From: Escherichia coli
Lineage (GTDB): Bacteria > Pseudomonadota > Gammaproteobacteria > Enterobacterales > Enterobacteriaceae
NCBI RefSeq assembly: GCF_003334815.1
Contig: NZ_QOWO01000062.1
Length of the DNA: 9,739 bases
Reading direction: 5' to 3' (one strand)
The notes beneath the pieces were generated by a model that did not search any database, was not told the DNA's origin, and saw nothing but the letters and a program-made list of their open reading frames with translations. Positions within the stretch are counted from its first letter, which is position 1; every line of letters starts with the position of its first letter. The translations under genes and the position numbers were made by a program. Positions 9,521 through 9,662 of the stretch are shown here, piece after piece.

Positions 9521-9662
9521 TTTAACATGTTGTTTTTCTAAGTGTTATAAGGTAGGTATAAAATGGGATGGAGCCTCTGCTTCTGGCATGTGTCGGTCAG
9601 AATGACTCATGATGTGGTCTGCTATTATTGACATCCTCACTGCCCTAAAGGATGGGGATTTC

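Follow-up and report, generated by a model that had tools for sequence, protein, structure and literature searches.

Small open reading frames (ORFs) that precede premature RNA 3' ends have been described as potential upstream ORFs (uORFs) in Escherichia coli (PMC7815308). One of the nine validated potential uORFs was listed as ‘ykiE-insA-7’, followed within less than 200 nt by an RNA 3' end (Adams et al. 2021, PMC7815308). The ORF itself, ykiE (b4801), was identified in an initiation-site ribosome profiling study (Weaver et al. 2019, mBio, as cited in PMC7815308 and PMC8921622), and is among the 31 small ORFs validated by western blot (PMC8921622). The adjacent IS1 copy, IS1F, is an essentially inactive element that differs from the IS1 consensus by 73 mismatches and is oriented divergently from fecIR (PMC12428005). 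IS1 possesses an outward-facing -35 sequence, which forms a hybrid promoter only if combined with a correctly spaced -10 sequence (PMC8764528). The third system to which this locus can be compared is the right end of IS200/IS605-family elements, which contains the 3' stem-loop of the TnpB guide (omega) RNA.

The window, by which we mean the whole analysed stretch of 9,739 nucleotides, contains a K-12-type E. coli fec locus in which all genes from fecE to fecA as well as fecR and fecI are on the minus strand. It is 99.5% identical to MG1655 over positions 198-9739 and 100% identical over 9401-9739, window position 9563 corresponding to MG1655 4518372. Positions 1-197 did not align to MG1655, where K-12 has an IS600/insM fragment; the remaining 9.5 kb contained 47 mismatches. 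The DNA therefore comes from an E. coli strain that resembles K-12 without being K-12. On its downstream side the fec region is bounded by IS911 and yjhV remnants. The initial annotation placed an IS1 end about 240 bp upstream of fecI and described the intervening segment 9521-9662 as lacking an ORF and having unknown function. The first statement was confirmed by the MG1655 annotation: IS1F (4518472-4519239) starts at window position 9663, and the distance between its end and the fecI ATG is exactly 236 nt. The second has to be corrected, as the segment contains the annotated 22-codon gene ykiE.

The coordinates of the relevant features are collected in Table 1. The window ORF was identical in sequence, position (MG1655 4518372-4518440) and strand to ykiE of E. 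coli K-12 (YP_010051215.1 / WP_211180522.1), and was found also in W3110; it is the same gene. In a sample of 30 records, taken from the 2,779 E. coli records that have the stretch, ykiE was the gene named beneath the match in nearly all cases. Two other ORFs cross the IS1F junction, and neither has support as a gene. One (43 amino acids, 9545-9676, minus strand) has a TTG start within the IS1 inverted repeat; the other (26 amino acids, 9609-9689, plus strand) encodes the sequence ‘DILTALKDGD’, which is an antisense reading of the IS605-type hairpin described below.

Table 1. Features of the fecI-IS1F region and matches of covariance model R1 (coordinates are window positions).
Feature	Position	Strand	Basis	Score
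fecR	7955-8908	-	annotation	
fecI (ATG at 9426)	8905-9426	-	annotation	
fecI core promoter and overlapping Fur-box-like sequence	9443..9491	-	promoter scan; conservation across 41 Enterobacterales loci	
Lineage-specific native flank of the fec island	9492..9626	strandless	sequence comparison among fec loci	
Shine-Dalgarno-like AGGTAGGT, 6 nt upstream of the ykiE ATG	9549..9556	+	direct sequence reading	
ykiE (b4801), 22-amino acid small ORF, divergent from fecI, pointing into IS1F	9563..9631	+	ORF list; RefSeq MG1655, W3110	
RNA hairpin, ykiE-sense strand	9625..9667	+	fold	-14.5 kcal/mol, z -2.4
Putative IS200/IS605-family (insQ/TnpB, IS609-like) right-end stub, terminus at 9627, facing fecI	9627..9662	-	covariance model R1; tail identity	
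R1 match, window	9660->9627	-	R1	24.9 bits, E 0.0015
R1 match, Klebsiella fec hairpin		+	R1	43.4 bits, E 1.8e-7
R1 match, Klebsiella fec hairpin		-	R1	39.1 bits, E 1.5e-6
R1 match, solo hairpin downstream of ccdB		+	R1	30.7 bits, E 8.8e-5
IS1F left end (GGTAATGCTGCCAACTTACTGAT..., GGTAATGCTGCC...)	9663..9739	+	MG1655 annotation (IS1F = 4518472-4519239)	

We consider it probable that segment 9521-9662 consists of a known small gene and mobile-element debris, and does not hide a regulator. According to the proposed scheme the region would have three layers. A native, lineage-specific flank extending to 9626 would carry ykiE, which has a ribosome-binding site of its own and whose transcription runs away from fecI. 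The second layer would be a stub of an IS609-like element, comprising the terminal stem-loop and the GGATGTCAAT tail, which in an intact element would form the 3' end of the omega RNA. The stub would supply the stop codon of ykiE and would form, jointly with the first 5 nt of IS1F, the hairpin after which the ykiE-sense RNA ends (9670). The third layer, IS1F, would have removed the rest of the IS609-like element and whatever lay beyond it.

The assignment of the second layer is based on the following comparisons. Read on the minus strand, the stub consists of GAAATCC, a decayed 9-bp stem with the loop TTTA, and the terminal tail GAGGATGTCAAT; the hairpin of the window copy is AAUCCCCAUCC-UUUA-GGGCAGUGAGGAUGUCAAU. 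Beside ydcO lies the E. coli insQ element (IS609-type), and its right-end terminus has the same last 12-13 nt as the stub; the family occurs in 4,902 of 5,426 E. coli genomes. All 52 TnpB relatives found on viral contigs ended with GGAATCC, a 9-bp stem, a 4-nt loop, the second arm of the stem and GGAGGATGTCAA(N), and their flanks were unrelated. The GGAATCC context, the 9-bp stem, here decayed, the 4-nt loop and the GGAGGATGTCAA(N) tail are what the stub has in common with TnpB right ends. Covariance model R1, built from 14 natural TnpB right ends and roughly calibrated, matched the minus strand of the window (Table 1) and gave no match on the plus strand. In the R1 alignment three of the nine stem pairs of the window stub were non-standard, whereas the Klebsiella homologue was perfectly paired; the natural right-end stem was 94% paired, with compensatory changes at three pairs. 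The match of the window copy is short and decayed, and its assignment as a putative right end is supported by the clearly significant Klebsiella homologue.

The stub differs from an intact IS200/IS605 element in that it represents only the last 36 nt: tnpB, tnpA, the scaffold and the left end are all missing, its scores do not reach the Rfam thresholds, and it cannot act as a guide RNA. Since IS1F starts 36 nt from the right-end terminus, the sequence is a relic and not an element. The sequence comparisons led us to conclude that 9627-9662 is most probably what remains of an IS609-like right end, a decayed stub of 36 nt, and that IS1F replaced the body of the element. None of the fec loci examined had an intact IS609-like element next to ykiE, and the progenitor state is a reconstruction.

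The connection to TnpB emerged when the palindrome of the Klebsiella fec loci was used as query. Weaker copies were found elsewhere on Klebsiella plasmids, and these led to the TnpB right end. One of the paralogues truncates a phd/yefM antitoxin gene and runs into DNA annotated elsewhere as ‘RNA-guided endonuclease TnpB family protein’. An intact tnpB on an E. coli plasmid scored 358 bits against the NCBIfam model guided_TnpB (NF040570). The idea that the palindrome represents a dispersed repeat family was discarded, as the plasmid search mostly re-found fec loci in addition to a few weak paralogues. When a natural Enterobacterial TnpB element was compared with Rfam, HgcC (25.5 bits) and sot0042 (24.5 bits) were obtained, both with sub-threshold scores. 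We take HgcC (RF00062) and sot0042 (RF02656) to be families derived from IS605-type tnpB 3' ends. HgcC was also obtained with the Klebsiella fec copy, with 28.8 bits on the plus strand (E 7e-5, threshold 50) and 19 bits on the minus strand. No Rfam family matched the window up to E 10; OrzO-P (17 bits), SCARNA7 and Yar_1 were at chance level.

A fec-like solo hairpin (TTGACATCTTCCCTGTCTTTCAGGGCGGGGAGGCTGTCAAA) was detected by R1 in Klebsiella pneumoniae pSKLX33612-1 (locus L068, 1200-1241; 30.7 bits). It is located immediately downstream of ccdB and overlaps the stop codon of this gene. Here, too, an orphan IS605-type end serves as the 3' hairpin of a gene.

In MG1655 an RNA 3' end lies just beyond the hairpin that the stub contributes to. 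On the ykiE-sense strand the hairpin includes a lower stem in which the stop-codon region of ykiE, UUAUUGA, pairs with UCGGUAA, a sequence that includes the first 5 nt of IS1F. The published Term-seq data place a plus-strand 3' end at MG1655 4518479 (1,637 reads; PMC7815308), which is window position 9670, i.e. 3 nt past the hairpin and 48 nt upstream of insA-7. For this 3' end the Rho score was 1.3, which is not significant, and the intrinsic-terminator score was 1.99 with a cut-off of 3 (PMC7815308). In our scan of 9300-9739 no terminator-like site was detected, and the hairpin is not followed by a U-tract. Because of the missing U-tract, the hairpin would serve as a 3' end or stability element and not as a canonical terminator. 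A small amount of read-through past the hairpin would enter IS1F, and no effect on fecI would be expected.

Two other interpretations of the hairpin were weighed, and taken together we regard them as quite improbable. According to the first, it is an ordinary terminator or independent palindrome whose likeness to an IS605 end is coincidental. The position of the RNA 3' end 3 nt beyond the hairpin and the fact that GC-rich hairpins are common are compatible with this, but the lack of a U-tract, the negative terminator scan and the published intrinsic score below the cut-off argue against it. According to the second, the relic lies on the plus strand, and the ykiE region descends from the 3' end of a tnpB gene and a guide-RNA scaffold. 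This orientation was raised by the better plus-strand match of HgcC to the Klebsiella copy, in which a 5' helix (UCUGGC...GUCAGA, AUGA) was aligned within ykiE. In addition, natural elements have GGTCTG at a similar offset, and the K-12 3' arm GGATGGGGA is the same as that of one natural element (L113). It is disfavoured by three observations made with the K-12 copy: R1 matches it on the minus strand only, and both the 12-nt tail GAGGATGTCAAT and the loop UUUA fit natural right ends in the minus sense only. Moreover, the ykiE region is colinear with the chromosomal flank of Citrobacter, which itself has no hairpin; the homology to this flank stops at about 9606-9627, where the stub begins. The strand of the stub is therefore clear for K-12 and ambiguous for the Klebsiella copy, because the hairpin of the latter is a perfect palindrome.

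Relatives lacking IS1 were found on plasmids. Of 1,281 plasmids that matched the stretch, most came from Klebsiella and the rest from Enterobacter, Citrobacter and others; about 1,000 matched over 9427-9658 at about 95%. Between the K-12 and the Klebsiella type there were five differences in 9427-9631 and six within 9632-9658, and homology ended at 9658. The initial annotation had envisaged that IS1 displaced ancestral upstream sequence, and proposed such IS1-free loci for comparison. The near-identity over 9427-9631 speaks against a role of IS1 in fecI expression, and the divergence beyond 9658 agrees with displacement. As IS1F, in addition, abuts a truncated IS609-like end, the comparison supports the view that the ancestral sequence beyond about 9658 was displaced in the E. 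coli lineage.

The Klebsiella fec loci carry a perfect 18-bp palindrome, TTGACATCCTCCCCGCCC-TTTA-GGGCGGGGAGGATGTCAA (-38.8 kcal/mol, z -9.4). In K. pneumoniae pDA11912.1 (L060, 4203-4242) it occupies the place where K-12 (9628-9662) has the decayed hairpin. The loops, TTTA in Klebsiella and TAAA in K-12, are reverse complements, a relation that flipping or re-templating of the hairpin would produce. It was also considered that the 42-nt Klebsiella palindrome is an insertion with CTAT duplication, for which Citrobacter would have the ‘empty site’. This was rejected because the right flank had no significant similarity to Citrobacter (score 18, compared to a shuffle mean of 16.7). In Enterobacter hormaechei pRHBSTW-00086_2 (L063, 1637-1700) exactly 46 nt (TGCTATTATTGACATCC...GGATGTC), comprising the hairpin plus the preceding 9 nt, are missing. 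The deletion is bounded by GTC repeats and looks like slippage across the palindrome; istA (IS21 family) follows 230 nt later.

The stop codon of ykiE (9629-9631) falls inside the stub, whose terminus is at 9627. The small ORF is thus chimeric and lineage-restricted, with a stop codon and an RNA 3' hairpin that come from mobile-element debris. When the K-12 and the Klebsiella versions were compared, two substitutions were found, both non-synonymous, plus a +1 insertion that shifts the frame and reduces the product to 16 amino acids. The truncated form is that of the roughly 1,000 Klebsiella-type plasmids. Between K-12 and Citrobacter we counted about eight non-synonymous and three synonymous changes. 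The positional homologue in Citrobacter portucalensis (L008, 2762-2872, minus strand) is a GTG-initiated ORF of 36 amino acids (MDIGWRRGVCFWHVTVGMTSDHVCCEHGADECFKAC; MDIGWRRGVCFWHVTVGMTSDHVCC...), which differs from K-12 ykiE by an in-frame 6-nt indel; the version of Citrobacter sp. Cu233 is short and frameshifted. The core G-W-x-(L/V)-C-F-W-H is common to the E. coli, Klebsiella-type and Citrobacter versions, and the sequence CFWHV is kept in all three lineages. Retention of the CFWHV core could reflect constraint on the peptide, although by our own estimate about 0.4 identical runs of 18 nt would arise by chance at 78% identity. No NCBIfam family was found for YkiE.

These data bear on the question whether ykiE is a selected functional small protein, for instance one linked to iron or to fec, and whether the segment exists to express it. 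Translation of ykiE was validated by others (PMC7815308, PMC8921622), the gene has a good Shine-Dalgarno sequence and always travels with fec, and it may share the Fur-box region with fecI. Conservation of the peptide core across three lineages and the preservation of the frame by the C. portucalensis indel point in the same direction. Against this stand the exclusively non-synonymous K-12/Klebsiella substitutions and the frameshift in the Klebsiella-type plasmids, the count of about eight non-synonymous to three synonymous changes relative to Citrobacter, the origin of the C-terminus and stop codon from an IS stub, the absence of an NCBIfam family, and the absence of the ORF from most fec-bearing genera. 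On balance we judge a selected function unlikely. In view of the frameshift in the Klebsiella type, the non-synonymous changes, the stub-derived stop codon and the lack of an NCBIfam model, YkiE is probably not a conserved effector, but a young and lineage-restricted product under weak constraint.

The promoter scan of the minus strand identified the fecI promoter, with the -35 sequence TTCTCA at 9475-9470, a 17-nt spacer and the -10 sequence GATAAT at 9452-9447. The overlapping sequence GTAATGATAACCATTCTC (minus strand, within 9443..9491) is presumably a Fur box, a putative assignment made from the consensus. On the plus strand two promoter candidates overlapping the Fur-box region were found: TTAATA-16-TACAAT at 9464-9491 and TAGTCA-18-TATCAT at 9456-9485. 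We conjecture from these sequences that ykiE may be transcribed from a plus-strand promoter overlapping the shared Fur-box region; its transcript would start at such a promoter-like site and, because of the overlap, would be co-repressed by Fur.

The Term-seq tables (PMC7815308) also contain minus-strand RNA 3' ends within fecI, at MG1655 4518224 and 4518148. The first, at window position 9415, is 11 nt past the start codon and was represented by 29,202 reads; the second, at 9339, had 160,230 reads in another condition. These early 3' ends hint at premature termination or processing.

To delimit the sequence conserved upstream of fecI, 240 nt were aligned from 41 Enterobacterales loci, which were obtained by a FecI-similarity fetch from species-representative genomes, supplemented with K-12 and two Klebsiella plasmid types. 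Only 9443-9491 was conserved across the 41 loci (0.75-0.93 identity to K-12). Mean identity to K-12 was 0.88-0.93 for 9463-9492, and dropped to background (0.17-0.48) beyond 9492. In BLAST comparisons most genera aligned to about 9503 only; C. portucalensis, Citrobacter sp. Cu233 and Kluyvera alone reached 9559-9606, at about 78%. Correspondingly, the flank 9492..9626 was 95% identical to the Klebsiella-type fec plasmids and about 78% identical to the chromosomal fec loci of C. portucalensis and Citrobacter sp. Cu233, and was not conserved in other genera. The palindrome located upstream of fecI at 9483-9520 (ATTGGAAA-N8-TTTCCAAT) adjoins the conserved Fur-box block with its left arm. Its right arm is not conserved in the Klebsiella p11311-type, Citrobacter and Kluyvera loci, which makes a role as a general regulatory site unlikely.

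An upstream regulatory role of 9521-9662 at the fecI promoter, as a distal transcription factor site, a bending site or an UP-like element, is very unlikely. Such a role might be suggested by the AT-richness up to about 9560, by the block up to about 9558 that can be aligned among seven related sequences, and by CTGCTTCTGGCATGTG, which is identical in K-12 and both Citrobacter loci. Against it stand the background-level identity beyond 9492 across the 41 loci, the IS origin of part of the segment, and the E. hormaechei plasmid allele described above, a natural loss of 46 nt. When CTGCTTCTGGCATGTG was inspected for sigma-54, CRP or Fur sites, no convincing match was seen, and an identical run of its length is expected by chance at 78% identity. 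We infer that 9521-9662 contributes little or nothing to fecI control.

The possibility that the IS1 end drives fecI, by outward promoter activity or by read-through, had been put forward in the initial annotation; a hybrid promoter is included here. As in the described IS1 hybrid promoters, an outward -35-like sequence (TTGGCA, 9676-9671) is present in the IS1F end facing fecI. Unlike in those promoters, there is no properly spaced -10 sequence: at spacers of 15-19 nt the hexamers matched TATAAT at zero to three of the six positions, the best being CATCCT with three. The promoter scan found no minus-strand promoter between 9476 and 9739. The genes insA7 and insB7 are directed rightward, away from fecI. 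The fecI promoter, which has its core and Fur box intact and is self-sufficient, has its -35 sequence 187 nt away from the junction, with the hairpin in between, and its sequence is nearly unchanged in the Klebsiella-type loci that lack IS1. Fixation of the same junction in 2,597 genomes could in principle reflect selection, but it is equally explained by spreading of the island as one piece. The sequence thus lends no support to the suggested activity, and it appears extremely improbable that IS1F raises or deregulates fecI expression.

The distribution of the junction was determined in complete E. coli genomes, 2,749 of 5,426 of which carried 9427-9662. With at least 99% identity in 2,617 of the 2,779 matching E. 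coli records, this is a fixed, conserved sequence and not a statistical oddity. The exact ykiE-IS1F junction was present in 2,597 of the 2,749 genomes. In another 141 the sequence was the same through 9662 plus GGTAA, and continued in multi-copy sequence beside an annotated IS3-family transposase remnant; this IS3-family junction was seen in O104:H4-type genomes (L003, 4101 onward). Among the E. coli loci that could be accounted for (2,597 with IS1F and 141 with the IS3-family junction, of 2,749), every K-12-type locus had an IS at this junction. IS1F is not flanked by a target duplication, having GGGATTTC on one side and GACCATGTT on the other. The Klebsiella-type version was found in a few dozen E. 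coli records. The chromosome of E. coli ABWA45 (L066, 3235-3930) has an independently acquired Klebsiella-type fec module in which another IS1 copy, oppositely oriented, lies about 355 bp ahead of fecI. IS ends thus recur at the upstream edge of fec (IS1F, the IS1 of ABWA45 and the IS3-family junction).

The uORFs described in PMC7815308 lie ahead of premature RNA 3' ends, and ykiE-insA-7 is one of those listed. Here the downstream gene, insA7, sits in a decayed, essentially inactive IS1, and any uORF regulation of insA7 would be putative. One can speculate that iron starvation fires both fecI and ykiE through the shared Fur box, and that transcription and uORF translation then cross the stub hairpin into IS1F, which would couple iron status to insA7 or to the stability or mobility of the fec island; we rate this as a long shot. 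In a related, likewise remote scenario, solo hairpins of IS605-type ends might be kept as insulators; the variants observed comprise the perfect palindrome, the flipped loop and the 46-nt deletion allele of Klebsiella-type plasmids, and the similar copy downstream of ccdB.

For the biology of fec these results have little consequence: the classical picture, with a Fur-controlled promoter directly ahead of fecI, is upheld. The existence of ykiE was already known; to this we add the location of its stop codon and RNA 3' hairpin within an IS609-like stub, and the broken frame in the Klebsiella-type fec loci. The modest gain is for annotation and evolution, as the bases that had remained unassigned from ykiE to IS1F in the K-12-type genome are explained by an IS609-like right-end stub, and the upstream edge of the fec island is IS sequence in every accountable E. 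coli context. The history of ykiE is also a caution against reading validated small proteins as functional genes.
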